Below, piece after piece: positions 5,788 through 63,928 of a DNA stretch of 64,000 nucleotides. The position numbers were made by a program, and so were the translations under genes. Within the stretch, counting starts at the first letter, position 1; each line of letters begins with the position of its first letter. The notes under the pieces were generated by a model that did no database searches, was not told where the DNA came from, and saw only the letters and a list, made by a program, of their open reading frames with translations. This DNA comes from a phage, in assembly GCA_026066175.1 (NCBI GenBank), contig GCA_026066175.1_4721.2; one strand, given 5' to 3'.

Positions 5788-7941
5788 TTATAGCGTTTCG
5801 AAGTCTTTTGCCTTGATGACCGACTGGAAGTTCGCCAGGAATTCTTTCAACAACGCTTGGAATACCGTGCGGAACGCTGTATTCTTCTGCAGACTGGTTA
5901 GATAATCGTTAGCGAGATAATCGCTAAGCTTACCGATCTTCTGCATCTTCTGACCGTCGTCGTTCTCTCCGGGTTCTTGGCTGTTAACGTTAGCCCATTT
6001 GATCCCTTCGAGATCGCCATCGGCAAGGAAGTTAGCCGGGGTTTCATCATCGTTCAGGATCTTAATCGTATCGCTGGATTCGATGCCACCGTAAGCTTCC
6101 AGAAGCTGGTTAACCGTCAAGGTATTCGTGTTGATGGAACCATTAGCACCATCGATGCCGATACCCGTACCGGTAATCGTGGTTGCAGAAAGATCAATCG
6201 GACCGGTTAACTTACCACCGCTGATGGGTAACGCACCGACCTGCGCAGCCGTGTGGGTGTGGTTAGCCAATGCCGCAAATGCCGCAATAGACTTGTACGT
6301 CGAATACGGCGTCATGTACGCGGTCTGGTTGGTGTTATCAGCAGCTTGAACGTCGGTTGCAACGCTGAAGTTCTGAACATTCCCTAAACCAACCTGATCC
6401 TTCGTGACTTCGTGTGGGTTCGTTTTATCGACAACGTGTGCTGCAAAACCATCCCCAGCCAAAGCGATAATCGCCGCTTTCGTTGCTGCCGGTGTCATGT
6501 AACGATCTGCCGCTGTACCAGCTTGCGCTTCAGCATCCGATGCAACAGGATAGTTACCAACATTCCCTAATCCGACTTGAGTTTTAGTAACCTCGTGCGG
6601 GTTGTTGGTGTTGGCAATGTGACTGCTGAAACCTTGACCCGCCATTTGTTCGATAGCATAACGAACCAACAGTGGTGTCATGTACTTGTTCGTGACCTGA
6701 CCGTCGATAGCTTCCTGAGTGGTTGCGATACCGAAGTTTTGAACGCTTCCTAATCCCACTTGGGTCTTGGTGACGTTATGCGGGTTGTTGGTATCAGCCA
6801 GGTGTTGTGTTACTGTCGGGGTAATCAATGCAGCAATAGCATCCGCCACCAATGCAGGTGTTACGTATTTGTTCGTTGCCGTACCGGCTTTCGCTTCCGC
6901 GCTCGTTGCGATACCGTAGTTTTGGACTGAACCCAATCCTACCTGTGCCTTCGTAACACCGTGAGGGTTACTCTTGTTTTCGGTATGCGAGGTTAACGAG
7001 GTGTTGAGTGCATCAATACGCGCGCTTAAGCCATCGGTGATTGCTTTGATTGCTGCTTTCACCCCTGCTGGGGTTGTGTACAGGTTGGTTGCTGTTCCGG
7101 TAACAGTTGTAGTGCTGTCAGCAACACCATAGTTCTCAACACTCCCCAACCCTACCTGGGCTTTTGTTACCTTGTGTGGGTTGTTAAGGTTACTGATGTG
7201 TGCAGCAGCGCTATCACCGCTCAGGTTAGCGATCATTTTACGGGTCATCGCTAACGTCATGTACAGGTTTTCACCGATGCCGTCAAGATCGCTTTCGGTA
7301 GCCAGACGGTAGTTTAATACGTTTCCTAGCCCCACCTGCTCTTTCGTCACCCCATGGGGATTGTCACGACGTTTCTCGTGTTGCAGCAATGCGGTCATTG
7401 CTTTATTGAACCCTTCTTCCAGGGGTTCTCTCAATGATTCAATTGCAGCAACCACGTCATCCCACGTCATTGTGTCGGTTTCGACATTATGTTGGTGGTT
7501 GATTGGCGGGAATACGGAAGGAACGTCGGCAACCTTTTCCCAGAACGTCACACGGGGATCGTAAAGGTTGTTGGCTAGAACGTTAAGAATTTGTTGTTGA
7601 TCAAGTGTAAACTCACCCCCCAGTGAATAGTAGTTCAGTTGCAACTGTCCACTGAATGCGGTATCCAACAGCATGATGGAACCGTATAATTCCAGGCCGG
7701 TCAGCGCAGCCATGGCACGGAAGGGGTGAGTGCATAAAAAGTCAACGCCTTCTTCCAGATACGCGTTTGTCTCCGGGTTGTAGATCTTTAACCCATTACG
7801 AAAATATGGCGCGTATTTAGGAACGAGAAAGTTAAATCCGGTCCCCGTGGAAGGACGGACAGTGACGAGTTCTTCTGGAACCCATGCGCCATCCAAATTC
7901 CCCTGCGGGTTATACGGAAGGCGTTTAATTTCATCTGTCAT
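5788..7941 (-). CDS. tail fibre protein with tandem fibre repeats
   Basis: 717-aa ORF; at least six copies of the NPHxVTKxQVGLGxVxN(Y/F)...AGTAxxxYxTP repeat. Its N-terminal ~170-aa domain is related to that of 62..2107, and it has a distinct C-terminal domain (HTHTAAQVGALPISGG...). SD-like aaaggg upstream. Confidence 0.75.
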   Translation of the reverse strand: MTDEIKRLPYNPQGNLDGAWVPEELVTVRPSTGTGFNFLVPKYAPYFRNGLKIYNPETNAYLEEGVDFLCTHPFRAMAALTGLELYGSIMLLDTAFSGQLQLNYYSLGGEFTLDQQQILNVLANNLYDPRVTFWEKVADVPSVFPPINHQHNVETDTMTWDDVVAAIESLREPLEEGFNKAMTALLQHEKRRDNPHGVTKEQVGLGNVLNYRLATESDLDGIGENLYMTLAMTRKMIANLSGDSAAAHISNLNNPHKVTKAQVGLGSVENYGVADSTTTVTGTATNLYTTPAGVKAAIKAITDGLSARIDALNTSLTSHTENKSNPHGVTKAQVGLGSVQNYGIATSAEAKAGTATNKYVTPALVADAIAALITPTVTQHLADTNNPHNVTKTQVGLGSVQNFGIATTQEAIDGQVTNKYMTPLLVRYAIEQMAGQGFSSHIANTNNPHEVTKTQVGLGNVGNYPVASDAEAQAGTAADRYMTPAATKAAIIALAGDGFAAHVVDKTNPHEVTKDQVGLGNVQNFSVATDVQAADNTNQTAYMTPYSTYKSIAAFAALANHTHTAAQVGALPISGGKLTGPIDLSATTITGTGIGIDGANGSINTNTLTVNQLLEAYGGIESSDTIKILNDDETPANFLADGDLEGIKWANVNSQEPGENDDGQKMQKIGKLSDYLANDYLTSLQKNTAFRTVFQALLKEFLANFQSVIKAKDFETL
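6339..7389 (-). repeat. in-frame coding tandem repeats inside the fibre gene
   Basis: Repeated ~45-60-aa units are visible in the translation of 5788..7941. Confidence 0.6.
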
Positions 7942-7973
7942 GATGCGCCCTTTACAAGTTGTTAGTAAGTGTG

Positions 7974-7991
7974 GGATACCCTGGGGTATCC
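7974..7991. promoter_or_regulatory. 18-bp near-perfect palindrome GGATACCC-TG-GGGTATCC in a divergent intergenic region
   Basis: 8-bp arms that are exact reverse complements, separated by 2 nt, located between the divergent starts at 7941 (minus) and 8046 (plus). Candidate operator or bidirectional regulatory hairpin. Confidence 0.4.
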
Positions 7992-8045
7992 TGTGTTAAC
8001 AGCGGTAAAATATTACTGTAACTATAAAATAAGGGGGCCTCTCCC

Positions 8046-9323
8046 ATGTATACATTGGTAAAAACTTACGGATTACCCGTAGGTTCCGGCACGGCCTGGA
8101 CAGCACTTGAAGCGGGTGAAAGCGTCCTGAGCACGTTGTTCGCAACGTATCAAAAACTCAAGATCCAGGTCCATGAAAGCTATACTGACCAGCAACAGGT
8201 TATCGATCTTTATACGTTTCAATCCGAGCTTCAAAACAGCAGCGATACGCTTAATGCTTGGCTGAAAGCGAAGTCGGATGCCCACACCAACCTTCGTGGT
8301 CAACCGGGTGAACTCTCGATTAAAGCCCACAAGCTTTATTGTCACGACGTTATCACGGTAGGCTTTCTTCCTAAAGTCGGTAATAGCGGCTATCATCCAA
8401 GCAACGCGATTCCTGAATCGGAACGTACCGATATTCTCCTAACAAAAGCAAACACGAATTACGAGAACATCGGCAAGCACTGCTTGTTCACGGTAGGGGG
8501 TTACGTACACCCTCACGTTTACGGTAAGGATGTTGGTGTCTATATCCAAGGCGGATTCAAGACAGCCCAACGCAGCCAGGAAAACGATATCGGGATGATC
8601 GATTTCAGCCGTATCGGAAGTTTGGAGATTCATGCGATCACAGAAGACATGATTGCGGATTCCACGAAGCTTTTACCGTACAAAGATGAGATGTATTTAC
8701 GCTTACCCCGTAAAGTTGCGGAAGATGAAACGGTTGCATTGGTGTTCGGAGGCTACTTACATCTCCTCGACGACTGTTACACGATCGTTAGCGATACGAC
8801 AGCAAAAATAAACTGCATCAACATGTTCTTGTACGAAAGGTATTTTCGTTCCCGTGAGTATCTTGACTTAACCTCCCTCGGTATTCTCTTGGACGAAGAA
8901 AACCCACAATCGGATATTGTTGCGAACCGTTTGCTGTCCGATAAAGCCTTGAAAGCCTGGGTGACCCATCCTTGCAGCTTTTGGGTTTATATCAAAGCAA
9001 CCTCGATTCAAGTTACGCAAGAACCGTTACCGCGCAGTGGCGTACCAGGACAGTATTTCTTAGGTAAGAAACCGGAAGGATTAATTCGCGCGGATCTTGG
9101 AGAACTGCCCGCGTACGTACAGACTTACGAGAAACCATTATGGGTACTTCATTCACGATGGGGACTTCGTAAGAACATGCTGTTTGAAAACACGTTATAC
9201 AAACACACACGTGTTAAACGCCTCAATGATACACCGTATCTCCATCAGGTGTGGTTGGAAACGCATGCGACGTTACAAACCGTACACAAGCTGGAACTGA
9301 TCGATTCCAGTCAGAAAAAATAA
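8046..9323 (+). CDS. hypothetical protein
   Basis: 425-aa ORF on the plus strand; SD aaggggg 5-6 nt before ATG; tataaaat box about 20 nt upstream; ends 16 nt before hairpin element copy 1. Confidence 0.7.
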   Translation: MYTLVKTYGLPVGSGTAWTALEAGESVLSTLFATYQKLKIQVHESYTDQQQVIDLYTFQSELQNSSDTLNAWLKAKSDAHTNLRGQPGELSIKAHKLYCHDVITVGFLPKVGNSGYHPSNAIPESERTDILLTKANTNYENIGKHCLFTVGGYVHPHVYGKDVGVYIQGGFKTAQRSQENDIGMIDFSRIGSLEIHAITEDMIADSTKLLPYKDEMYLRLPRKVAEDETVALVFGGYLHLLDDCYTIVSDTTAKINCINMFLYERYFRSREYLDLTSLGILLDEENPQSDIVANRLLSDKALKAWVTHPCSFWVYIKATSIQVTQEPLPRSGVPGQYFLGKKPEGLIRADLGELPAYVQTYEKPLWVLHSRWGLRKNMLFENTLYKHTRVKRLNDTPYLHQVWLETHATLQTVHKLELIDSSQKK

Positions 9324-9338
9324 ACAAGACAAACATAA

Positions 9339-9370
9339 CCCTCCTCCAACCCGTAAGGGAAGGAGGAGGG
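9339..9370. terminator. conserved GNRA-capped hairpin element, copy 1 (bidirectional terminator candidate)
   Basis: ccctcctcc-aa-ccc-gtaa-ggg-aa-ggaggaggg with cataa/catatg flanks, between convergent genes (stops at 9323 and 9380). Confidence 0.6.
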
Positions 9371-9379
9371 CATATGCCG

Positions 9380-13058: not shown

Positions 13059-15470
13059 TTAAGCATCCTCGGTAGGTAATGGTTTCACAATCAAACGATT
13101 GAGCGGATTCGATAGGCGCATACTGATAGGCTTATACGCAGCATGATTCGTTTCGCTCAATACAGCGGATCGGAAGCGACCTTCAACACGTTTATAGATT
13201 GGGTTTATCCAAAGACCCTGAAGACCCGGTTGACGGAAACGTTGTTCGATAGGTTTAATCGGTTTCACGGTCAAACCACGTACCGCTTCTGACGGTATAC
13301 GTTCGCTGATGTCGCGAGGTGCTCGACCTGGGAATGGAGCCAACCAGAGACCATCCAGCGGGTTCTTACGGAAACGCAACGAGATAGGATCGCTGATAAC
13401 CTGCGCCCAGTACTGCGTGCTGAACCGTACCGTCTGGGTATTCTCGTATCCGCTGCAATCGCACCAGGTGGGTTTCGGCGGGGCTTCTAAGCTCTCAACC
13501 GCGGATTCACGCCAGTTCGTCATTGGGTTGTTATCATGGACGAATTTGATAACTTCCGTAGCTTGGTTATCCGTATCGTGAACGTTTGCTTGTGCCCAGT
13601 CCTCCCACAGTTCTTCACTGCCGCTTACCAAACTTGAACCGAGCCGAACGGCAATTTTGTTCAGTGGTTTGATCGGATCGCTGTTGATTGTCTGGATAAA
13701 ATGGATGGTGTAACTGCTCAGTGTTTTAAGCAGTTGTAGCATCCCGTATTGAATATCCTTAAGACTGGTAACGTCTTCCAAGTCTTGACCGGTGGCCTTC
13801 GTGAAGATATCGAGAGCCAGAATCCCCGCTTCTTCTTGACTGATTGCGTCAAGCTCCCAATCCATCGCTAAGAACCATTCCTTGTAAAGCTGTCCAATAC
13901 CGAAATCAACCCCAACGTCCATGTAGAAGTTTTCAACGATAGCCTCAGCCATACCTCGAGCCTGGTAATGCTCCTGAAGCTGATACATGAACTGATGACG
14001 ACGCCATCCCTGATAGATTTCTGTAACGATGTTAAGAAATTCCTCAGTACTGACAATAGGACGTAATGTCACCTGTTTATCTAAACACCACCAGATCAGT
14101 TTGTCAGGAATGATAACCGGATCGGTAATGCTACGAAGATGCTCGAATGTCGGTAACGTTAAAACGCGGACGTGGTTAGCATGGATCTTAGGTACTTCAA
14201 TGAGCGTCATACCCATCGAATAGTTCAGCAAATACAAGAATAGCTTGTAGGCATCTTTCATCGACATGGTCATGGTATCACCCGTCACCGGGTTGGTGGT
14301 GGTTAACCGTGACTGATACATGCCGATGGAACTCAGATGGATCCATTCGTTGAGCAAGAAATCGTATTTCGGGTATAACTCACTGTCGGTAAGATCTTCC
14401 GCTTCACTTTCCAATACCTTGGTTGTTAAGGTATTATTGTCATGCATCGACATCTTCTCTATTGTGCGGTTAAGCTCGGTATAATACTCCGCTTCGTTAT
14501 CCCGCGCTAGAGGGAACTGTTGTTGCATTACGGTGGTGACCTTACGACGTACCGTCCCGTTACCAACGATCTCTTGAAGGTTAAGCGGTTTACGTTCCAT
14601 GTAAACAGTGGGTTTTAACGTCTGAGGTATTTCGGAAGCGTCTTGTTTGATCGAGAACGCACCGATTGGAATACCACGATCGGTGAGTACCTTCTGAATA
14701 AGCTTATCGTAGTTTTCCGTTCTACCCATGTTCCTTTCGACGTAAGCGATGTTACGATAAAACCAGAGCATTTGGGATTCTGTCATGTATCGCTTGAAAC
14801 GATCAAGGCCTTGATGGCTTGCCAGATAGCTCCAGATATGGAAGCTATGGGCATAATGGGTATGACAGTTTTCCCAACGAATACCTTTTATCATCTCAGG
14901 TATTTGTGTGAATAGAATAGCATATAACGCAGGCCAATGAAGCATATCGACGCTTTCATACGCGGGATGTTCCCAGCGCCGGAAGTAGTCGTCGATTTCT
15001 TGCTGTAATCGTGGAATAAGGTTGGCTTCGCGTGATTCAACCTCGCGGGTATCGTACCAGAGAATCTCGTGATTGCGTGCAGCAAGGGCTTTCTCGATAT
15101 CGATGGGGTTAAGGATACCCAGGATTAACATACGTTGTTCTGGGTACCGTGCAATTAGACGATTGAAATAATCTCCGCCGTACGCGTATTCCCTTGCGGT
15201 CATGCGGTGCCGTAGCATGTTTTCCTTGGTGAACTCGATCTCTTCGAGCGTATCCAGGGAATTGACGGTCATCATTGTCTGACAAGGATGATACTCGCCA
15301 GCGAGATTCATGTAGTATAACCACGTGCGTGGGTCGTCCCCGACGGCCATCTGGTAGACTTCGGAAACCTTGAGGTTTAACCGTTCTGCCGTGATGTCGC
15401 TTTTAATAATCAGGGTGTCCGTTAGACGCTGCACGCTTTCCGAATAAAGCTGATAGTCAGTGTTGGACAC
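13059..15470 (-). CDS. large hypothetical protein with C-terminal RFR/GLW short repeats (start uncertain)
   Basis: Long ORF; the track start at 15539 is a TTG with no SD, whereas the in-frame GTG at 15470 is preceded by ggagga (6-nt spacer); the first in-frame ATG is at 15350. C-terminus has repeats SLRFRKNPLDGLWLAP / EQRFRQPGLQGLWINP / EGRFRSAVL. Confidence 0.55.
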   Translation of the reverse strand: MSNTDYQLYSESVQRLTDTLIIKSDITAERLNLKVSEVYQMAVGDDPRTWLYYMNLAGEYHPCQTMMTVNSLDTLEEIEFTKENMLRHRMTAREYAYGGDYFNRLIARYPEQRMLILGILNPIDIEKALAARNHEILWYDTREVESREANLIPRLQQEIDDYFRRWEHPAYESVDMLHWPALYAILFTQIPEMIKGIRWENCHTHYAHSFHIWSYLASHQGLDRFKRYMTESQMLWFYRNIAYVERNMGRTENYDKLIQKVLTDRGIPIGAFSIKQDASEIPQTLKPTVYMERKPLNLQEIVGNGTVRRKVTTVMQQQFPLARDNEAEYYTELNRTIEKMSMHDNNTLTTKVLESEAEDLTDSELYPKYDFLLNEWIHLSSIGMYQSRLTTTNPVTGDTMTMSMKDAYKLFLYLLNYSMGMTLIEVPKIHANHVRVLTLPTFEHLRSITDPVIIPDKLIWWCLDKQVTLRPIVSTEEFLNIVTEIYQGWRRHQFMYQLQEHYQARGMAEAIVENFYMDVGVDFGIGQLYKEWFLAMDWELDAISQEEAGILALDIFTKATGQDLEDVTSLKDIQYGMLQLLKTLSSYTIHFIQTINSDPIKPLNKIAVRLGSSLVSGSEELWEDWAQANVHDTDNQATEVIKFVHDNNPMTNWRESAVESLEAPPKPTWCDCSGYENTQTVRFSTQYWAQVISDPISLRFRKNPLDGLWLAPFPGRAPRDISERIPSEAVRGLTVKPIKPIEQRFRQPGLQGLWINPIYKRVEGRFRSAVLSETNHAAYKPISMRLSNPLNRLIVKPLPTEDA

Positions 15471-15497
15471 GATCGGTCCTCCAAGGAGCCAGTGTAA

Positions 15498-18416
15498 ATG
15501 AACGATATAAATAAAGGGCGCGTCGCCCTCGAACGTCAAATGAGCAATAATGACGTTGCGAAGGCACTCATGAACAAATTTGTCGCTCCTGCTCCGCAGT
15601 CACGTCTTTATAACACACGTGAAGCGGAAGGAGCGAGCGGTCGTTTCGGGTTAGTTGTTCCCGACCAGATGACGATGAACACGGTGACGCGTGCGACCGC
15701 AACAAACGTCGAGGATAATAAAAACATCCTCGAGTTGTTCCCTGAACTTAAACGCGTGATGCAGATCTATGTTGCCGCGTTGACGAACCCTAACGATCTT
15801 AAGACGGTCGAGATGTTCATCGACAGCGAAGATTTCCCCGGCAGAGTCGCAGAAATCGTTCAGCCGATGATCGATACCATCGACACGCATTTTAAGAATA
15901 TCTATAAAATAAAGACGCTTATCCCTCGTATCATCGAAGATGTCTTCTTTATCAAGGGCAGCTATAACTTCGTTGTTCTGCCTGAAAGCACGCTCGATCG
16001 TGCTATTAACGGCAACGGCCAACTGAAACTCGAAGAATACGGATTTAAAAACAATCATTTCGCCAGCTGGGGGCTGCTGGGGAATGACAGCCGTATACGC
16101 AGTCAACATCAGTTACCGACAACGGTTTCGATGGAAGATTATTTTTCAGGCGTTAACGAAACCATCCCGTACGATCCGGTTGTCCGTATCGATAGCATCA
16201 AGTTTACCAACACGATGCTCCGTGATAAAGACGGTAAATTCATTGAAGCGAAGGTCGATATTCCGGATATGGTTACGGTTGTTGATAACCCAGACATCCT
16301 TCGCATGCCGATTTTACACCAACGTCGTGCGTCAACAGCCGTGCAACGTGCATTACGTGCAAACACCTTAGGCGGTAACGGCCTGGTGACGTTATCAGGC
16401 GATCCGACGCAAACCGCGAATCGACGTGAGCTGACACAAGAGCAAGTTAATGAGATCTGGAATAAACTAAACATCCAACGTCATACCAAGGTATCGCCTG
16501 TGTACGCACTAGCAACCCCGGATACCCTTGACCGTCAAAGCGTTGGTCATCCTGGCGTAATGCATGTACCACCTGAGTCATTAGAACCGGTTCATGCGCC
16601 TGGCGATCCAGAGAACCATATCGGTTATCTCGTCCAGCTGGATGAATTCGGTTACCCAGTACGTTTGGTTGAAGATGCTGCGTATTACAAACAGCTGGAA
16701 GGTCGACTGTCGAAGATCACGGCGGATATTGCCGGTACATCAAGCAACGGAATGGCGAGTGAGATGATCGGGGCAGCGAAGAACATGGTTCAAGGTACGT
16801 CGTGTAACCAAGTCGATATGTCAGCGTTTGTCTCGTCGTACGAATCACTGATGCAACGTTATATCGTTGAACGTATCGTTAACGGTTACCTCGGCAGTGC
16901 GGTAGAAATCGGTGCAACGTCGTCGTTCTATCTGTCGATGCTTGCCCGCAGTCTTGCTCACAAGCAAACCCGTGTTTTGTTTATTCCTCGTGAGATGGTG
17001 ACATACATCGCCTACGAATACAACAAATACGGGATTGGACGTTCCTTGCTTGAAAGTACGAAGATGATCTCATCGCAACGCGCGATGCTCATGGTTCAGG
17101 AACTGATGGCGAAAATCAAAAGTTCGTTGAACTATACGACGCTGAGCGTGATGCTCGAAGACACCGATAGAAACCCGGTTGATACCGTTGAGCAGGCATT
17201 GCACAGTTTTGCTCGTGTTTATCAATCTGGTTTCCCGTTGGGTGAAACCAACCCAATGGATATCATCAATGCATACGAACGAAGCTCGATTCGATTGAAG
17301 GTTGAAGGGAACAACCCACGCTTCCCGAAACTGAACACCGACGTTAGCGTTGAACAACGTAACTACCAATCCCCGGATGATGAGCTGATGGATCGTTACC
17401 GTCGTGATCATTTCATGGGTCTGGGTGTTTCTCCAGAGATCGTTGATACGTCCTACCAATCTGAATTCGCGGCGTCGGTGATTACGGCTAACGCGATGCA
17501 AGAGAAACAGTTCACGGTTTGTCGTGAGGTCGTCACGAATGGCTTAACTGATCACATCAAGAAGTATACGGCTTATAGTCCTGTGCTTCTGACGTCGTTA
17601 CGCAATACCGTTCGCGCGAATATGTCAAAGCTCTCTCAAGCGCAGCTGCAACAGCTCTTTGGTAGCGACTTCGAAAACGGTGTTATTCGTAACGTGAACG
17701 CGTATCAGGAGATTGATGATCGATCGGTGACAATGGATCTGGATTACACCAAACCGGAAGTCCAGGAAGTGATTGCTGACGCTTATGTCTCCATGTTCTT
17801 AAACAGCTTGCAGGTACGTTTACCGGATAGCAACGCGCGTCGCCTTGAAGATCAGGTACGTGAATATAATCAGTACAAGGAAGCGATTACAGCACAACTT
17901 GATGATTATTTAACACCGGATTATGTCATGGGTCTGGGTGGGGTCGATGAAACAACCCTGCAGATGATTCGAGCGTGCATCATTGGTACGGCGATGAGGA
18001 CATGGGCGAAAGAAAACAACTTCAATCAGGAGCTGGCCGATCTCTTTAGTCTCGACGATAAGAAGAATGCCGTCCAGGATTGGAAACGTGCATCCATGGA
18101 GCATATTGAAATCATGGGTAAATGCATGGGTGATTTCGCACTCTATATCCAAAACCTGACGAAGCAAATCGAAGAGAAGATGGGCGACCAAGCACAAGAC
18201 GGTAGCGTTTCATCTGACGGCTCATGGTCATCGGATTCCGGTTCGGATAGCGGTTCTTCCGATGATTTCGGTGGTGGTGATGACTTTGGTGGCGACGACG
18301 ATTTCGGAATGGAAGAAACCGAAGAATCCACCGAGGAAACCACTACGGAAGAAACAACCGATGAAACTGGTGATAATGCCGCATCAGAAGACGATACCGC
18401 AGGTGATATTGTCTAA
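15498..18416 (+). CDS. large hypothetical virion protein with acidic DDFGG-repeat C-terminal tail (portal-like size; function unverified)
   Basis: 972-aa ORF; SD aaggag 9 nt before ATG; C-terminus SSDDFGGGDDFGGDDDFGMEETEESTEETTTEETTDE... is low-complexity and acidic. Confidence 0.6.
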   Translation: MNDINKGRVALERQMSNNDVAKALMNKFVAPAPQSRLYNTREAEGASGRFGLVVPDQMTMNTVTRATATNVEDNKNILELFPELKRVMQIYVAALTNPNDLKTVEMFIDSEDFPGRVAEIVQPMIDTIDTHFKNIYKIKTLIPRIIEDVFFIKGSYNFVVLPESTLDRAINGNGQLKLEEYGFKNNHFASWGLLGNDSRIRSQHQLPTTVSMEDYFSGVNETIPYDPVVRIDSIKFTNTMLRDKDGKFIEAKVDIPDMVTVVDNPDILRMPILHQRRASTAVQRALRANTLGGNGLVTLSGDPTQTANRRELTQEQVNEIWNKLNIQRHTKVSPVYALATPDTLDRQSVGHPGVMHVPPESLEPVHAPGDPENHIGYLVQLDEFGYPVRLVEDAAYYKQLEGRLSKITADIAGTSSNGMASEMIGAAKNMVQGTSCNQVDMSAFVSSYESLMQRYIVERIVNGYLGSAVEIGATSSFYLSMLARSLAHKQTRVLFIPREMVTYIAYEYNKYGIGRSLLESTKMISSQRAMLMVQELMAKIKSSLNYTTLSVMLEDTDRNPVDTVEQALHSFARVYQSGFPLGETNPMDIINAYERSSIRLKVEGNNPRFPKLNTDVSVEQRNYQSPDDELMDRYRRDHFMGLGVSPEIVDTSYQSEFAASVITANAMQEKQFTVCREVVTNGLTDHIKKYTAYSPVLLTSLRNTVRANMSKLSQAQLQQLFGSDFENGVIRNVNAYQEIDDRSVTMDLDYTKPEVQEVIADAYVSMFLNSLQVRLPDSNARRLEDQVREYNQYKEAITAQLDDYLTPDYVMGLGGVDETTLQMIRACIIGTAMRTWAKENNFNQELADLFSLDDKKNAVQDWKRASMEHIEIMGKCMGDFALYIQNLTKQIEEKMGDQAQDGSVSSDGSWSSDSGSDSGSSDDFGGGDDFGGDDDFGMEETEESTEETTTEETTDETGDNAASEDDTAGDIV

Positions 18417-18451: not shown

Positions 18452-18485
18452 CCTTCTCCCCAACCCGGAAGGGAAGGGGAGAAGG
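18452..18485. terminator. conserved GNRA-capped hairpin element, copy 2
   Basis: ccttctcccc-aa-ccc-ggaa-ggg-aa-ggggagaagg between convergent stops (18416 and 18503); preceded on the plus strand by an A12 run (18426-18437), which is a U-tract for the minus-strand transcript. Confidence 0.65.
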
Positions 18486-18502
18486 GCTATGCGCTATTTA
18501 AC

Positions 18503-18798: not shown

Positions 18799-18820
18799 GG
18801 GTATTGCGTTAACAATACCC
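18799..18820. terminator. hairpin gggtattg-cgttaa-caataccc between genes (terminator or operator candidate)
   Basis: 8-bp perfect inverted repeat centred on a gttaac palindrome, 9 nt downstream of the stop of 18829..21420. Confidence 0.35.
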
Positions 18821-25014: not shown

Positions 25015-27237
25015 TCAGTTAGTCTGAACCGGCAGCTTGATGTTTTCAGTGTAGACCTTACGCAGGTTCACAACGTTGATCAGACCCAGCAGCGGGCAGT
25101 TGTTCACGAAACGGCAGCGCGGCTGAACCATGGTTTCTTTAGAAACCTGACCGTTACGAGTAACCTGAGCAACGGATACCAGTTCCGGTACGTACAGGAA
25201 CATACCGAAGGTCAGCGGATCCGGAGAACCCTGGATACCACGAGACAGGGTCACGAAGATCTTGTCGCGCAACATGACGTTCGGGTTGTCTACAACCACG
25301 AAGTTGAAGCTTACACCCACGGTGCGGAAGTCACCATCGGTCTGCAGGAACTGCGGGATGTAGTTGTCGGTTGCTACTACGCAACGCGGTTTCTCATCAG
25401 CGTTGGAAGACAGCAGCTGCAGAGCTGGCTGATAACCAGACTCGGAGTACATGCGGTACGCCATTTCACGAATCACGTTCATGATCGCAGCGGATACTTC
25501 AGCACGACGTTCTGCAGTGGTGGTACCCTGAACGGATTTCTCCAGGTCCAGATCGATTTCTTCGAACCACGGACGAATCAGGTAACGACCGAAACCTTCG
25601 ATCTGAATGTCACCGAACTGACGGAAGCGAGAAGTTGCAACCGCTTTCAGGGCGTCTTTGTAGCTGAACAGTTTCTCAACCATCAGGTTGTCGAAACGTG
25701 CGTTAGCTGCTTGGATCAGAACATCCAGGTCAGCAGCGTTTTCTTCCCAATCCAGCGGACGAGGAATGGAGAACGGAGCCAGCAGGCCGATTGCGTAACG
25801 TTCTTGCTTCATGTTGAAGTCAAGATGTTTACCGCGTTCACGACGGTTGCTGTTGTTACGACGGATACGCAGTTCGTAACCCACCAGTTTGAAGCTCAGG
25901 TCTTCAGCCAGATCTTTGAATTCCTGGCTCTTACGCGGTTGTTCGATGTTGTCCTGGTCAACCAGACGATACAGTTCAGCGGTAGCGCCATTAACACGCA
26001 GACCCGCTTTCTCTACGTTGGAAGAACCGTAAACTTCGATCGCCAGCTGAGCAGCAGATTTCGCATCGATGATGTCCTGCAGCGCTTCAGCTTTCGCACC
26101 TTTAACGTCAACGGTGTTCTCATCAACGAAGATGGAGTGGGTGTCGAACGCCAGGGTCATTTTGCGGAAGTCGCCTTCCAGGGATTTCTGGAAACCGTTG
26201 GTGATCAGACCGGATACGTCGAACGGAACGTAAGAGGTTTTGCTGTGCTTGGTGGATTTAATTTCCACCAGGATTTTGGTCAGCGTGATCTGAGCATCCA
26301 GCGCGTCAGTGTTGTCGCTGTAACCGTTAGCCAGAATGCTATCGTCTTCAGCGATACCGATCATGTCGATCAGTTTATCAACCGCCAGGTAAGACGTTTT
26401 GTAAGTAACGCCTTTGATTTCGATGTCGCGCGGAGCAACGATGGTTTTATCAACGAAGTACTGCGCGTTAGCATCGTCAGCACGGTAGATCGGATGCAGA
26501 TCGGTCACGTCGTTGGACAGAACGTCGTTGTACATGAACGCATCCAGCAGCGGACGACGTACCCAATCAGCCGGAGTACCATCACCGTTACGACGCAGGT
26601 GGTTGAACACCAGCGGACGACGGAAGGAAACGTCATAACCGATCTGGTTCGGAGCCAGAACGATGGTGTTGTACAGTTCGTTACCCATGCGGCTCAGACG
26701 AGACGCCTTCACGTTGAACACAACGGAGTACGGCATCATGTCACGCAGTTCTTTCTGGTCGTAGGACAGCTGAACCAGTTCTTCAGATTCACAACCGCAG
26801 GAATCCGCAGCCATCATGACGAAGTTAGCGCTGTCAACATCACGGCCGGACGGCGAGGTGCTGATGTTCATGGAACGTGCTTGTTTAGCATATTCCACCG
26901 GGTTGCCATGTGCCAGCATGATCAGCGCTGCAGCGCGAGCCTGCTGTGCGTTCATGGTGAACAGCTGTTCTTCAATACGTTGCTTCTCTTCCGGAGTTGT
27001 GGTTTCGAAGCCCAGCATGGACAGAACCGGTTCTTCAGCTTTACGGATGTCGCTGCTGAAGCTCTTAACATCCATTTCGTTAACCAGTTTGTCCATGGAT
27101 TTGAAATCAACCTTAGAAGCAGATTCCATAGACAGGAAGGTGTTTTCCAGACCTTTGTCTGCTGGTTTGCTACCATTAGCGGTCAGGAACTGGCGAGTGG
27201 CCGCGACCTGTTGGCTAAGAAGGGTTTTATCATTCAT
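25015..27237 (-). CDS. putative major capsid protein (highly expressed virion protein)
   Basis: 740-aa ORF with markedly optimised codon usage (CTG, CGT, GGT, AAC, TTC, GAA) compared with its neighbours; size matches jumbo-phage major capsid proteins; SD taaagga. The opposite strand carries a long stop-free antisense ORF, typical of highly biased genes. Identity not verified by similarity search. Confidence 0.5.
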   Translation of the reverse strand: MNDKTLLSQQVAATRQFLTANGSKPADKGLENTFLSMESASKVDFKSMDKLVNEMDVKSFSSDIRKAEEPVLSMLGFETTTPEEKQRIEEQLFTMNAQQARAAALIMLAHGNPVEYAKQARSMNISTSPSGRDVDSANFVMMAADSCGCESEELVQLSYDQKELRDMMPYSVVFNVKASRLSRMGNELYNTIVLAPNQIGYDVSFRRPLVFNHLRRNGDGTPADWVRRPLLDAFMYNDVLSNDVTDLHPIYRADDANAQYFVDKTIVAPRDIEIKGVTYKTSYLAVDKLIDMIGIAEDDSILANGYSDNTDALDAQITLTKILVEIKSTKHSKTSYVPFDVSGLITNGFQKSLEGDFRKMTLAFDTHSIFVDENTVDVKGAKAEALQDIIDAKSAAQLAIEVYGSSNVEKAGLRVNGATAELYRLVDQDNIEQPRKSQEFKDLAEDLSFKLVGYELRIRRNNSNRRERGKHLDFNMKQERYAIGLLAPFSIPRPLDWEENAADLDVLIQAANARFDNLMVEKLFSYKDALKAVATSRFRQFGDIQIEGFGRYLIRPWFEEIDLDLEKSVQGTTTAERRAEVSAAIMNVIREMAYRMYSESGYQPALQLLSSNADEKPRCVVATDNYIPQFLQTDGDFRTVGVSFNFVVVDNPNVMLRDKIFVTLSRGIQGSPDPLTFGMFLYVPELVSVAQVTRNGQVSKETMVQPRCRFVNNCPLLGLINVVNLRKVYTENIKLPVQTN

Positions 27238-27386
27238 TGAAAGTATCCTTTACAGATTTAACTTATATAAGTCGGTCGATAGACCATAGCGTACACGCGT
27301 GCATGCGCCACTATAGTATCAGTAAACACTTACCGTTATTGAGGTTGTGATACAACACTAAAAATGCCGCATAACTTTTCCCTACG

Positions 27387-29682: not shown

Positions 29683-29714
29683 CCCTCCTCCAACCCGGAA
29701 GGGAAGGAGGAGGG
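29683..29714. terminator. conserved GNRA-capped hairpin element, copy 4
   Basis: ccctcctcc-aa-ccc-ggaa-ggg-aa-ggaggaggg between convergent stops (29657 and 29732); an A10 run lies upstream on the plus strand. Confidence 0.65.
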
Positions 29715-29731
29715 TTATGACCGTTATGGTG

Positions 29732-31099: not shown

Positions 31100-31174
31100 C
31101 GTATTTACCTTTTTATGTTAGGTGGGTTGCGGATGGAAGAATCAATGCATAGTCTGATTTAAGTTTGTTAAGAC

Positions 31175-32008
31175 TTACTTAGCTTTCGGATTATACGGAC
31201 TAACATGTTGTTGCATTCGTTGGATTGTTTCGTAGTACGGGTTATAATGAGTGAACATATTGTTGTATGGATGGTAGCCGTAAAGCGCATTTTGCCTTGC
31301 CGGTGAGAAACCTTTTTGAGAAGGACGATTTGAATTTACTGCGAGCACGTAGTAAACCAAATTTTGATGGTCGAATGTTCCTTCGTTTTTGAAGGTGTCA
31401 GCATAGGCGCTTACCGCAGGAGCAAGTCTATCACCATCGGTTGTAATGATCGTACCATCCGGGTAAACTTCTCGAACGATACACCATGTTCCGATGAGAA
31501 CATCTTCGGGTGTCTTATTACTGTATCCGACTGTAACGGTAAGGTAAGTATCGAATCCTCCTGAGCGCTGCGGATGTCGATAAATTGGGCCAGTCGTTTC
31601 TGCTTTATCGGTTACGGTTTTTTCGTAAGGACACTTCTTGATTGCTTTGATGTAAATATCGGGAATCTCTAATACCGCCTTATCAGGATGAATTCTAAAA
31701 TGATTCTTGAGTAAGCCCAAAAGGTTGGTTGCTACCACGTCGTGAGGTAGTACCCAATAACTGGTAGGGGAGTCATCGCCGTCTCTCTTGGAGAAGATGA
31801 CTGCCTTGTTATCGTCGTCTGGTAGACTGAAGAAAACGATTGACTCAATAGGCATAGCCAGCTCACCACAACAGGGGTCAGCGGATAACACCCAATTGTA
31901 TTTGTTGTCCGTTTCGTATAAATGTTCTGTTCTGTCGATACTACGATCCTTCAATTGGATGTAGCGTTCACGTTGTTTCTTGGTTAATTTACGGTAGATA
32001 GTGGTCAT
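31175..32008 (-). CDS. hypothetical protein, paralogue family B
   Basis: 277-aa ORF with SD aaggag; shares the N-terminal MT(D/T)(I/V)Y(R/T)KL and the PIY(R/V)HP...YPDG(T/R)I motifs with 32094..32867. Confidence 0.65.
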   Translation of the reverse strand: MTTIYRKLTKKQRERYIQLKDRSIDRTEHLYETDNKYNWVLSADPCCGELAMPIESIVFFSLPDDDNKAVIFSKRDGDDSPTSYWVLPHDVVATNLLGLLKNHFRIHPDKAVLEIPDIYIKAIKKCPYEKTVTDKAETTGPIYRHPQRSGGFDTYLTVTVGYSNKTPEDVLIGTWCIVREVYPDGTIITTDGDRLAPAVSAYADTFKNEGTFDHQNLVYYVLAVNSNRPSQKGFSPARQNALYGYHPYNNMFTHYNPYYETIQRMQQHVSPYNPKAK

Positions 32009-32093
32009 GTTAAGCTCCTTGATTACGGTAAGGATGATTTCGGTTTTGTGATGATGGTAGGACCACTTTGTTTAGGATCCTACCAGTACGGGA

Positions 32094-32867
32094 TTATTCA
32101 TGATCAGTGTAGAAATGGTGAGGATAGCCGGAGTACGATCCTGCGTTACCGGCTATGGATTCTTTCTGGGAATCGACGACGAGCGCGTAGAACTGTCGGG
32201 AATTTGTTAACGTTGAGAAATAAGAGGAAAGGACTTTTTCGTTCAACGCATCGCACGGTAGACAGGTACGCCCACAGAACGTCGTAATACGGCCATCCGG
32301 ATAGATCTCACGGATCATACGCCATTCACCGATATCAACCGGCGATGGCGCTGCTACACCACCTGTTATCGTTAAATAACGATCATACGTGGTATGACAT
32401 TCTGGATGTACGTAAATTGGCTTATTGGCCTCAACTTCTTCAGGAGCATAGCGTCGACCGAGAAGTTCAATAACCTCCAGATAGATTGTAGGCAGATCGC
32501 AAAGAACCCCTTCCTCTTTACGTTTCTTCGTGATTCGAGGACGAACCTCATTGATAACGTAGGCGAGTTCATTCAGCGCTTCTTGCGCTGGTAGCACGAA
32601 TAAACGGTCCGGTTTGTCGGACAAGTCTTCATTTACGTAAACGTAACAAACATCGTCTTTAGGCGCGTAGAAGAAGCGAGAGACCTTAAAGGTTTCCGTA
32701 GTACGATAACCGAGACGCGTTTGGTCCTGCACCAGAGAAAATATCCAGCGACGTCCTTCGTCCTGTTCAATGATATCATTGAACATCTTTGTTTGATCAG
32801 GAAGTTGATATTCTTCCTGTAATTTAGCAAGTGCTTCATTATCCAGTTTGGTGTAAACATCAGTCAT
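32094..32867 (-). CDS. hypothetical protein, paralogue family B
   Basis: 257-aa ORF; related to the 31175..32008 product over its full length. Confidence 0.65.
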   Translation of the reverse strand: MTDVYTKLDNEALAKLQEEYQLPDQTKMFNDIIEQDEGRRWIFSLVQDQTRLGYRTTETFKVSRFFYAPKDDVCYVYVNEDLSDKPDRLFVLPAQEALNELAYVINEVRPRITKKRKEEGVLCDLPTIYLEVIELLGRRYAPEEVEANKPIYVHPECHTTYDRYLTITGGVAAPSPVDIGEWRMIREIYPDGRITTFCGRTCLPCDALNEKVLSSYFSTLTNSRQFYALVVDSQKESIAGNAGSYSGYPHHFYTDHE

Positions 32868-32894
32868 GATAGTATCCTCGATTAGTAAGGTTGG

Positions 32895-33299
32895 CTAGTC
32901 TATCTTAAGCCAGATTGATGGTAAATGGAAATAGACACCGTCGTCTATTTGTTTTTGTGTTAACGGGGTTGGAAGTTTAGTGATGATGTTGTCGATCGAT
33001 TCCTCAATGTCACTTGTTAGAACGTCGATGTGGTAATAGCGAGCGATGCGTCCGTTACGTTCTAGCCAAAACAGACGAACGAAATCACTATTTTTATTAA
33101 TCGCATTCATAAACACGATTTGATGAAGCAGGATCATTCTTGACGAGGGGTAATCGTCAGGACGCGGAGTCATCACCAGTTCCCAACGTTTCCGTCGCAC
33201 GCCTTTTTTGAATTGACTCGTTACATTTGAACCACTTTTACCTAAGTTTATAACAAATTGCTTTAGACGATACGGTGTGTTTCTGTAAATATCGGTCAT
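32895..33299 (-). CDS. hypothetical protein, paralogue family B (N-terminal-domain-only member)
   Basis: 134-aa ORF; N-terminus MTDIYRNTPYRLKQF and C-terminal ...HLPSIWLKID align with the first ~130 aa of the two longer paralogues and stop at the LP(S/T/D)IY(L/I)K domain boundary. Confidence 0.55.
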   Translation of the reverse strand: MTDIYRNTPYRLKQFVINLGKSGSNVTSQFKKGVRRKRWELVMTPRPDDYPSSRMILLHQIVFMNAINKNSDFVRLFWLERNGRIARYYHIDVLTSDIEESIDNIITKLPTPLTQKQIDDGVYFHLPSIWLKID

Positions 33300-33383
33300 T
33301 GATTATAGCTCCAGGTTATTATCACTAAGGTAATATAGTCGTGAAATAAACTGGAGTAATAGAAATAATAAGACGGCATAAGA

Positions 33384-33414
33384 CCCTCTCCCAACCCGGA
33401 AGGGAAGGGAGAGG
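33384..33414. terminator. conserved GNRA-capped hairpin element, copy 5
   Basis: gcataaga-ccctctccc-aa-ccc-ggaa-ggg-aa-gggagagg, 6 nt downstream of the stop of 33420..34787; identical over ~39 nt to copy 7. Confidence 0.6.
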
Positions 33415-33419
33415 AAGTA

Positions 33420-36708: not shown

Positions 36709-38260
36709 AGCGTTTCACTCCTACGATGGTACCGACAAGGATTCTCGGTACGAATAAACTACGATGTTTGAACCACGAAGCGGTTGTTGGGATACGTTTG
36801 ATGGCTTCGATAAGCCCGATTAGCGTATAGCACCCCCGACTGTTCTTCTTAGGCCAGTACTTTTTATCTAGACCTAATACTGCAAACAGTTCATCCACCA
36901 GATTGGGATAACAACACAACGCTTCAAGTGTTTCAACCTGTAACTGACTTAAATCTAACAGTATCGCTAGACGAACGTGGTAATCACTCCGTAGGTCTAA
37001 TGGATCTTTCGCTTCAAGATCACCAACGTCGGTTAATGTCCACGCGTCTCTTGCGTAGCGGTATTTACCCTTCCAAACCTCAAGGAAAAAAGGAGACCGG
37101 TAATGACATTTTGACCATTCTGGGTACTCACGGAACCACCGAACAAGATCGGGATGGAATTCACCTTCTTCGGCTAACGAGTCCAACGTCACCAACAGGT
37201 TAGGTTGTTCAGGATCGATGGCAAGCAGCGCGGTGAAAAGCGTGCTTGATGGAAGTTCGGTTTCCACACTTGATGGCGGTAGCCATTCATCCAGATCAGG
37301 ATACCGATACGCTTGAATCGATGCACCCTGCTCGGGCAAGAACGAATCACGAAGAATGTCCTGATACTGCACCACCATACCACCACGACGCGCACGGGAT
37401 TTATCACGCACCGAAAGGCTCGGTTTGTAAAGGTACTCTTCGGGGAGTATCTGTTGGTGTACTTGAACAGGATACCGCGCTACGATGTGTGTTGGCGTGT
37501 CGTATGTGTAACGGTAAGAGAAGGTTGCGTTGTACGAAGAACTGTTCTCATTCTTCTCGGGTTTCGGAGCGTCGGTGAAATCAAATTGACCAGAGATCTC
37601 TTCTTGCATTTCCCTGATAACCAATTTAACGCTCTTACCGTCACCTGCAACCGTCGTCATGGTGGTTGCGCGGTTGTCGAACCCGTCTCTAAGGTATTCG
37701 CTGAACTTATCCCCGTAACCCGCTATTGCTTCCCGGTGTGTATGAATAACTTTTAACAACATGAGAAACTGTGTTGGGATCGCATAGCTGTATTCGGCGC
37801 TAAGGAAGGCAGCGACGTGCTGACTTGTCAGCAAACGTTTCATGTCGTACCACCAACGTTCGGCGGTGACCTGATCCTCGAAACGTTTGGTGATTTGCAT
37901 GGTCGCAACCATCGTACTGTAAACAGGCACTAACGACACACCAAGGTTACGGTCTTCAAATACTGGAAGACTGTTTCGTTTGTAAACGGTATCGTACATG
38001 GACGCCTGTTCTTCAGGGACAACGTTAAGCTCGATTTGGATAAACCCGTCAGCAGGCCCCTTTACATCCTGATCAACAACTTGCGGTGGTTGCTCGTTCG
38101 CGGCGCTCATTTTAGCGTGAAGCGCTTCCCCTCGAAAAAGAATGTTCTCCCGACTATAATCCCACCCGCAAAGCTCGCTGATCTGCCGTAACACCGCGAT
38201 TGCAACCGGACGTGTTACCGTCGCGTATACGTCATTGATTTTTCGATCAAGTTTAGGCAT
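36695..38260 (-). CDS. hypothetical virion protein (start uncertain)
   Basis: The ATG at 38260 (MPKLDRK...) has SD gagga with a 9-nt spacer; the track start at 38287 is a GTG placed directly against an aaggag. Confidence 0.6.
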   Translation of the reverse strand: MPKLDRKINDVYATVTRPVAIAVLRQISELCGWDYSRENILFRGEALHAKMSAANEQPPQVVDQDVKGPADGFIQIELNVVPEEQASMYDTVYKRNSLPVFEDRNLGVSLVPVYSTMVATMQITKRFEDQVTAERWWYDMKRLLTSQHVAAFLSAEYSYAIPTQFLMLLKVIHTHREAIAGYGDKFSEYLRDGFDNRATTMTTVAGDGKSVKLVIREMQEEISGQFDFTDAPKPEKNENSSSYNATFSYRYTYDTPTHIVARYPVQVHQQILPEEYLYKPSLSVRDKSRARRGGMVVQYQDILRDSFLPEQGASIQAYRYPDLDEWLPPSSVETELPSSTLFTALLAIDPEQPNLLVTLDSLAEEGEFHPDLVRWFREYPEWSKCHYRSPFFLEVWKGKYRYARDAWTLTDVGDLEAKDPLDLRSDYHVRLAILLDLSQLQVETLEALCCYPNLVDELFAVLGLDKKYWPKKNSRGCYTLIGLIEAIKRIPTTASWFKHRSLFVPRILVGTIVGVKRYGAR

Positions 38261-44626: not shown

Positions 44627-44658
44627 CCCTCCTCCTTCCCTTCCGGGTTGGAGGAGGG
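44627..44658. terminator. conserved GNRA-capped hairpin element, copy 6 (canonical sequence on the minus strand)
   Basis: Plus strand reads ccctcctcc-tt-ccc-ttcc-ggg-tt-ggaggaggg, the reverse complement of the canonical element; 8 nt downstream of the stop of 44666..45958. Confidence 0.6.
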
Positions 44659-44665
44659 ATTTAGC

Positions 44666-47335: not shown

Positions 47336-47367
47336 CCCTCTCCCAACCCGGAAGGGAAGGGAGAGGG
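47336..47367. terminator. conserved GNRA-capped hairpin element, copy 7
   Basis: gcataaga-ccctctccc-aa-ccc-ggaa-ggg-aa-gggagaggg-aatatg, 23 nt downstream of the stop of 47390..48721. Confidence 0.6.
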
Positions 47368-47389
47368 AATATGTCAGTTTACTAACTGA

Positions 47390-55616: not shown

Positions 55617-55648
55617 CCCTCCTCCAACCCGTAAGGGAAGGAGGAGGG
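55617..55648. terminator. conserved GNRA-capped hairpin element, copy 8
   Basis: acataa-ccctcctcc-aa-ccc-gtaa-ggg-aa-ggaggaggg-aatatg between convergent stops (55596 and 55658); identical to copy 1 over ~40 nt. Confidence 0.6.
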
Positions 55649-55657
55649 AATATGCTG

Positions 55658-63910: not shown

Positions 63911-63928
63911 TAAATTTACGTAAATTTA
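63911..63928. promoter_or_regulatory. perfect 18-bp AT-rich palindrome TAAATTTACGTAAATTTA upstream of the metallopeptidase gene
   Basis: Exact reverse-complement symmetry, 12-29 nt upstream of the ATG at 63899; candidate operator or promoter element. Confidence 0.45.

Follow-up and report, generated by a model that had tools for sequence, protein, structure and literature searches.

The locus and its flanking genes

The DNA analysed here is a stretch of 64,000 nucleotides of phage sequence, referred to as the window. It belongs to a close relative of the E. coli jumbo phage vB_EcoM_Goslar (Chimalliviridae, 237,307 bp). The entire window is collinear with the Goslar genome at 87.6% identity, and the segment 5700-9400 is matched over its full length at 85%. 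Two genes start divergently at 7941 and 8046, as originally predicted, and are separated by a 104-bp gap (7942-8045). This gap corresponds to Goslar 26351-26454, between gp029 (minus) and gp030 (plus).

The product of the minus-strand gene matches PHROG families of tail proteins and of tail fibres (phrog_13857 tail protein, E 2e-130), and the gene occupies, by synteny, the position of the phiKZ gp131 family. Goslar gp29 has been detected in virions and is likely a peripheral baseplate or fibre component. Pfam searches with the four ORFs neighbouring the gap returned no match and no recognisable DNA-binding protein. Likely ribosome-binding sites can be read upstream of both start codons (Table 1). 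Given the position of the plus-strand site, the transcript of the plus-strand gene should start at or before ~8030.

Table 1. Features of the divergent gap, its flanking genes and related sites in the window and in Goslar
Feature	Position	Strand	Remark
gp029 homologue, tail or tail-fibre-like virion protein	5788-7941	minus	Goslar homology, phrog_13857, synteny
AAAGGG, likely ribosome-binding site of the fibre-like gene	7948-7953	minus	inferred from letters
Variable positions	7970-7971		loci L007, L022, L024 and L025
TGTG	7970-7973	plus	window; TATG (phiKZ late start motif) in Goslar and two metagenomic relatives
18-bp palindrome GGATACCC-TG-GGGTATCC	7974-7991		near-perfect
Short perfect palindrome TGTTAACA	7994-8001		read from letters; between two larger palindromes
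12-bp palindrome GTAAAATATTAC, GTAA-N4-TTAC family	8005-8016		best candidate promoter-associated site of the gap
tataaaat box TATAAAAT	8023-8030	plus	
AAGGGGG, likely ribosome-binding site of the plus-strand gene	8031-8037	plus	inferred from letters
gp030 homologue, phiKZ gp130 / 201phi2-1 gp215 virion structural protein family	8046-9323	plus	phrog_3337
Second GTAA-N4-TTAC match GTAAAAACTTAC	8058-8069		codons 5-8 of the plus-strand gene
Recurrent hairpin sites (approximate)	9340-9371, 18455-18490, 29685-29716, 33385-33419, 44630-44660, 47340-47372, 55620-55650		
Capsid 12-mer in the window	27322-27333		TATG G at 27285, minus strand
TATG-linked or family 12-mer sites	Goslar 16758, 45746, 197141, 202818		and 8 further sites
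Early-type promoter with palindrome	Goslar 2547-2563, ~113760-113790, 226665-226688		loci L002, L004, L006

Anatomy of the 18-bp palindrome

The near-perfect palindrome that had drawn attention to the gap is indeed present. It reads GGATACCCTGGGGTATCC, in which two perfect 8-bp inverted arms flank a non-symmetric TG. The half-site centres are 10 bp apart (8-bp arms, 2-bp spacer), which is about one helical turn. The element is GC-rich and lies on the fibre-gene side, 13 nt past the 12-bp palindrome at 8005-8016 (the 12-mer) and 32 nt before the fibre start codon.

Further copies, for which the original prediction proposed a genome-wide search, were not found. A search of the window at up to three mismatches retrieved the 18-mer itself and nothing else (0.02 matches expected), and the complete 237-kb Goslar genome, joined from five pieces, contains no further copy at up to four mismatches. 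A repressor regulon is therefore not supported. The 8-bp half-sites occur 14 times in Goslar versus ~7 expected; these matches are scattered in coding DNA and are not clearly enriched.

As RNA, the palindrome folds on either strand into a stem of 7-8 bp with a 4-nt loop (-11.2 kcal/mol for the minus strand, with a 7-bp stem, and -11.4 kcal/mol for the plus strand). Its z-score is -3.4 for the isolated 34-nt piece and about -1 against the best hairpin of shuffled 104-nt gaps, a comparison in which the energy is unremarkable. Rfam 15 covariance models gave no match at E <=1 in 7700-8300. A terminator scan did not call the palindrome. The hairpin lacks a U-rich or TTAT tail, since TGTGTTAA comes after it on the plus strand and CACACTTA on the minus strand. 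We rejected an intrinsic or phiKZ-type terminator on account of the missing tail and of the location between two gene starts.

Palindromes as a class

We counted perfect palindromes (arms of 8 bp or more, spacers of up to 6 nt) and compared the numbers with those in shuffled sequences. The window contains 19 (5.9 in shuffles) and Goslar 54 (19.7 in shuffles). In Goslar, 23 of the 54 touch intergenic DNA, which makes up 7.6% of the genome. The 20 divergent gaps of Goslar hold seven palindromes with arms of at least 7 bp, compared with 1.45 expected and a maximum of six in 300 shuffles. Since palindromes are enriched in intergenic DNA and in divergent gaps, the one at 7974-7991 is, as a member of this class, unlikely to be due to pure chance.

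Most intergenic palindromes are located between co-directional genes, with TTATG after them. With their GC-rich stems and loops of 3-6 nt, most of those in the Goslar-like phage look like RNA hairpins. A conserved terminator hairpin plus TTAT has been described for phiKZ (Putzeys 2024, PMC10914365) and matches the intergenic hairpins with TTATG seen here. One near-identical GC-rich hairpin, CCCTC(C/T)(T/C)CCAACCCG(G/T)AAGGGAAGG(A/G)GAGGG, is flanked by (T)TATG and recurs between genes of the window, often convergent ones (Table 1); it matches the conserved phiKZ hairpin plus TTAT.

Two general links between hairpins and transcription starts were considered and rejected. Hairpins at +1 are not a general feature of late transcripts, as they occur at 30% of TATG sites and at 27% of other G positions. 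Furthermore, TATG does not reside preferentially in extruded DNA hairpins, as in N4-like hairpin promoters: it is found in or near palindromes in 10% of cases, versus a median of 15% for all 4-mers. The Goslar gaps likewise show no association of TATG with palindromes.

A separate palindrome, GGGTATTG-N6-CAATACCC, is found at 18799-18820 (Goslar 37193-37214), ~20 nt upstream of the gp037 homologue. Its 8-bp arms are identical to those of Goslar and its loop differs at four of six positions (CGTTAA versus CAAATA), a pattern which is typical of a conserved stem-loop.

Conservation of the gap

The gap is identical to that of Goslar at 103 of 104 positions, compared with 83-86% identity in the flanking genes. 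Nine further Goslar-like contigs also carry an identical or near-identical gap, and the 18-mer is identical, with invariant arms, in 10 Goslar-like genomes. Scans for relatives with single proteins yielded only those with a 96-100% identical protein.

This conservation is shared by a larger block. From ~7400 to 8100 the window is 93-100% identical to Goslar, synonymous sites included, and ~75-85% identical on either side. Third codon positions are 96% identical in fibre codons 1-100, versus 54-70% further in, and 61% identical in most of gp030. Because the block is near-identical even at synonymous sites, the conservation of the gap is uninformative on selection, and we discarded it as functional evidence for the palindrome: a recently shared block explains the near-identity. 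The block is centred on the divergent gap and looks like a recombination or mosaic block in which a conserved fibre N-terminus is joined to a divergent C-terminus.

Among the 10 genomes, substitutions in the gap are confined to 7970 and 7971, directly 5′ of the palindrome. Positions 7970-7973 read TATG in Goslar, L022 and L025 (A at 7971, a G-to-A difference), TGTG in the window and five other relatives, and AGTG in L024. One relative (L022) carries an additional A within the 12-mer (GTAAAAATATTAC).

Elsewhere in the window, blastn gave no Goslar counterpart for a segment of ~2.2 kb at ~31159-33318, which holds three minus-strand ORFs of 277, 257 and 134 aa. An early-promoter-like sequence, TTTCACGACTATATTACCTTAGTGA, is located just upstream of this segment, at ~33336 on the minus strand.

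Promoter signals in the gap

The tataaaat box had been pointed out ahead of the plus-strand gene, and the letters are as described. As a -10 element, it has no -35 partner, and no sigma-70-type site, with -10 and -35 hexamers spaced by 16-18 bp, exists in 7600-8400. In view of the missing hexamer pair around the gap, the box is unlikely to be a promoter.

Transcription in phiKZ-type phages is independent of the host RNA polymerase and relies on two phage-encoded multisubunit polymerases (PMC7598289, PMC4666361). By analogy, we assume that Goslar-like phages also transcribe with their own RNA polymerases; early transcription of Goslar occurs within the infection vesicle. Three promoter types are known in phiKZ (PMC4666361). 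An AT-rich motif near -10 marks the early promoters and AAanTTACc near -24 the middle ones, and late promoters consist of TATG only, in which the G is +1 and each position is needed in vitro.

An early-type consensus, tttCACGGCTATATTACttaNGTGA, was recovered in Goslar. One copy lies ~79 nt upstream of chmA and is compatible with the start region given for chmA. The gap does not hold a Goslar early promoter of this kind: AATATTAC matches seven of the eight core positions and comes without the upstream CACGGCT or the downstream GTGA. TATG is absent from both strands of the gap in the window; the Goslar gap has one, on the plus strand. At several early-type promoters of Goslar (TATATTAC), short palindromes follow a few nucleotides on, for example GGTGAAGC...GCTTCACC and CCTTCATGA...TCATGAAGG (Table 1); these may be hairpins in the transcript or DNA elements that overlap the start.

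The palindrome had been proposed to control a bidirectional promoter. One half of this proposal stands, in that the gap must hold two divergent start signals; the other half, an operator role, is not borne out for a palindrome that is a singleton.

The GTAA-N4-TTAC family

The palindrome of the gap that does recur across the genome is the 12-mer GTAAAATATTAC and not the 18-bp one. GTAA-N4-TTAC occurs 16 times in Goslar, compared with 4.45 times in shuffles, and the peak is specific to a spacer of 4. About 11-12 of the copies are intergenic and five are in divergent gaps, including those between chimallin and gp245 and between gp219 and the tail sheath gene.

Four exact 12-mers of Goslar are located 33-34 nt upstream of a TATG, an arrangement for which chance predicts ~0.2 cases. 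The genes they face are gp023, gp041 (major capsid protein), gp218 (tail sheath) and gp213, whose predicted leaders measure 31-56 nt. GTAA-N4-TTAC is a candidate upstream element of a late-promoter subclass. In the direction of the fibre gene, the copy in the gap reads GTAATATTTTAC, identical in sequence and orientation to the copy at the sheath promoter. The second match, within the plus-strand gene, is probably a coding coincidence. Beside the 12-mer of the gap stands the short palindrome TGTTAACA, and GTTAACA also adjoins the 12-mer at Goslar 188961.

The 12-mer invites comparison with the middle motif of phiKZ. Like AAanTTACc, the sequence AAAATATTAC of the window (8007-8016, which resembles AAAATTACC) is AT-rich, ends in TTAC and is located upstream of structural genes in a nucleus-forming jumbo phage. 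In contrast to the phiKZ motif, which is centred near -24, the Goslar 12-mer is a strict 12-bp palindrome, and its four TATG-linked copies are 33-34 nt upstream of TATG, versus ~20 nt for the phiKZ motif. The likeness belongs to this neighbouring 12-mer, whose role is a prediction, and not to the 18-bp palindrome.

Two further places deserve mention. A perfect 16-bp palindrome, AAATTTACGTAAATTT, at 63912-63927 of the window (Goslar 79481-79496), is separated by 12 nt from the gp067 homologue's start. The half-sites of this palindrome, TTTAC/GTAAA, are in reversed order with respect to the 12-mer, and its Goslar copy occupies the divergent gap that precedes the DNA polymerase gene. Moreover, 850 bp between gp021 and gp022 (Goslar 14972-15825, locus L002) carry no annotated gene and hold a GTAAACTTTTAC 12-mer together with terminator-like hairpins; this region may contain an unannotated small gene or non-coding RNA.

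The same gap in other genera

The arrangement of a tail-protein gene (minus) and a gp130-like gene (plus) around a gap of 66-136 bp is kept in all 11 other chimallivirus genera examined, represented by the phages 201phi2-1, pVa-21, pEa_SNUABM_54, pEa_SNUABM_6, RSF1, Proteus phage 10, Noxifer, Xoo-sp14, Eowyn, Kwan and RTH11. Every one of the 11 has a TATG on the tail-gene strand, where 3.5 would be expected (P<0.001). Among the 12 orthologues, only the Goslar-like fibre gene lacks TATG on its own strand.

Six of the 11 orthologous gaps hold a perfect palindrome whose arms measure 6 bp or more (1.7 expected, P=0.003). These palindromes are unrelated in sequence, have spacers of 1 to 8 nt and share no half-site. 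The predicted tail-gene leader contains the palindrome in pVa-21, Proteus phage 10 and RTH11, at a distance of 6-22 nt downstream from the TATG of that strand. The palindromes of RSF1 and Eowyn are just upstream of the gp130-like start codon, and that of 201phi2-1 overlaps TATG. A structure which recurs without its sequence speaks for a role of the hairpin type rather than for a conserved site of protein binding. An excess of RNA structure over the 12 orthologous gaps was not significant (mean z of only -0.5 to -0.9).

A possible stem-loop in the fibre leader and its alternatives

We tentatively favour the reading of the 18-bp palindrome as a transcribed stem-loop in the leader of the fibre mRNA, which would act after transcription. 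The gap would then be a short region from which the RNA polymerases of the phage start in both directions, with the 12-mer as its recurring signal. The fibre transcript is presumed to start upstream of 7991, which would place the palindrome in the leader. In the leader RNA, a 7-bp stem closed by a 4-nt loop is predicted (-11 kcal/mol); this stem-loop might protect the 5′ end, direct its processing or modulate translation.

Several observations count for this reading. Palindromes are enriched in divergent gaps, where terminators are not expected, and the palindrome at 18799-18820 retains both 8-bp arms between the window and Goslar while its loop differs. Also in favour are the hairpin-like look of most intergenic palindromes, the unrelated palindromes in six of the 11 orthologous gaps, the tail-strand TATG of all 11 with the palindrome inside the predicted leader in three of them, and the want of further copies that a repressor regulon would need. 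Other observations count against it. The hairpin is no more stable than the best hairpins of shuffled gaps (z about -1), the mean z over the 12 orthologous gaps is likewise low, and the arms are invariant among the 10 genomes, which leaves no covariation to score. Furthermore, the perfect 8+8 symmetry fits a DNA site slightly better, because the innermost C-G cannot pair across a 2-nt loop. The position of the start is also critical: if the fibre gene used the spacing of the sheath promoter (12-mer, N33, start), transcription would begin near 7968, and the palindrome would be an untranscribed spacer at -24 to -7.

The palindrome could also have no specific function and be a chance or mutational by-product within a recently exchanged block, which is possible though not probable. 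The identity of block 7400-8100 accounts for the conservation, the palindrome is a singleton with an ordinary hairpin energy, and chance alone would give the 64-kb window ~6 palindromes of this kind. However, only ~0.01-0.02 are expected per 104-bp gap, palindromes are 3-5 times enriched in the divergent gaps of Goslar, and the orthologous gaps of other genera are enriched too (P=0.003).

A DNA operator, to which a dimeric phage-encoded protein would bind in order to repress or time the fibre-gene promoter, is unlikely. The dyad is perfect over 8+8 bp, including the innermost pair that is useless to an RNA hairpin, and it is situated within a two-way promoter gap. With the 12-mer-N33-start spacing of the four late promoters, it would even occupy -24 to -7, a classic repressor position. 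On the other hand, the site remains alone in 237 kb even at four mismatches, its half-sites are not clearly enriched (14 versus ~7 expected), Pfam is empty for the four neighbouring ORFs, and the palindromes of the orthologous gaps have variable spacers of 1-8 nt and no shared half-site. To our knowledge, the phiKZ/Goslar phage family offers no described case of a late fibre gene with an operator of its own.

It is similarly improbable that the palindrome is a part of the fibre promoter itself, namely a GC-rich symmetric spacer which the non-virion RNA polymerase or a specificity subunit would read in place of TATG. The Goslar-like fibre gene is alone among the 12 orthologues in having no TATG on its own strand, its 12-mer has the sequence and orientation of the sheath promoter's, and the capsid and sheath promoters hold short GC palindromes (CACGTG, GCATGC, ACGCGT) in the same spacer. 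Against this, the five spacers have no sequence similarity, the start near 7968 is a predicted position only, and late promoters of the non-virion polymerase family have no known upstream determinant (PMC7618050). An extended version likens the gap to the capsid, sheath, gp023 and gp213 promoters and describes it as an unusual late promoter: the 12-mer would be bound by a dimeric phage-encoded factor or be a symmetric upstream element for the non-virion polymerase, transcription would start 37 nt off, and the GC palindrome would replace the otherwise universal TATG, as a control or initiation element specific to the fibre gene. We give this version a small chance.

Least probable, with a slim chance, is a role on the plus strand, either as a 5′-terminal stem-loop or start-site element of the gp030 transcript or as a stop for plus-strand antisense transcription before the 12-mer: a start at the TATG G (7973) would yield a transcript which opens with an 8-bp hairpin in a 73-nt leader, Goslar, L022 and L025 do read TATG followed by GGATACC, flanking G-U pairs lengthen the plus-strand stem, and the order of hairpin, 12-mer and gene is that of the Goslar gp212/gp213 gap, but the window and five relatives have TGTG and L024 has AGTG where phiKZ needs all TATG positions (PMC4666361), +1 hairpins are not enriched at TATG (30% versus 27%), TATG and palindromes are not associated in Goslar gaps, and the hairpin has no U-rich or TTAT tail.

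Relation to known systems and significance

Among characterised elements, the phiKZ-type terminator hairpin plus TTAT (PMC10914365) is also a GC-rich intergenic stem-loop and comes from the same phage family. The window itself holds many CCCTCCTCC...GGAGGAGGG hairpins with TTATG behind them. The palindrome of the gap differs from this terminator in sequence, has no TTAT or U tail, and is located between divergent starts with nothing upstream to terminate.

A second likeness concerns the stabilising stem-loops in the 5′ leaders of bacterial and phage mRNAs, such as the E. coli ompA leader. As in ompA-type leaders, a short stable hairpin would precede the ribosome-binding site of a highly expressed structural gene by a few tens of nucleotides. 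Protection by a leader needs the hairpin to be at the 5′ end or a few nucleotides from it.

With classical phage repressor operators, the palindrome shares perfect inverted repeats, half-sites one helical turn apart and a location in a divergent promoter region. Unlike these operators, it exists as a single copy, and no cognate regulator was found in the searches described above. A further difference is the setting: the phage DNA is within a protein shell, and non-canonical polymerases are expected by analogy with phiKZ.

Taken alone, the palindrome matters little, being one more intergenic stem-loop or dyad, with no regulon, in a phage whose intergenic DNA abounds in such elements. The 12-mer-N33-TATG architecture is the most useful product of the analysis, and it defines a small, directly testable promoter set. 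RNA-seq data for Goslar exist and can be re-read for 5′ ends (bioRxiv 10.1101/2023.09.20.558163). The 4-nt TATG is far too short to explain how the non-canonical polymerases of nucleus-forming jumbo phages select their middle and late promoters (PMC7598289, PMC7618050). The fibre gene, which is without TATG, carries a 12-bp upstream element common, at fixed spacing, to the capsid and sheath promoters. If the gap were an unusual late promoter, this would supply a missing determinant of late-promoter specificity for the Goslar/phiKZ-type family.
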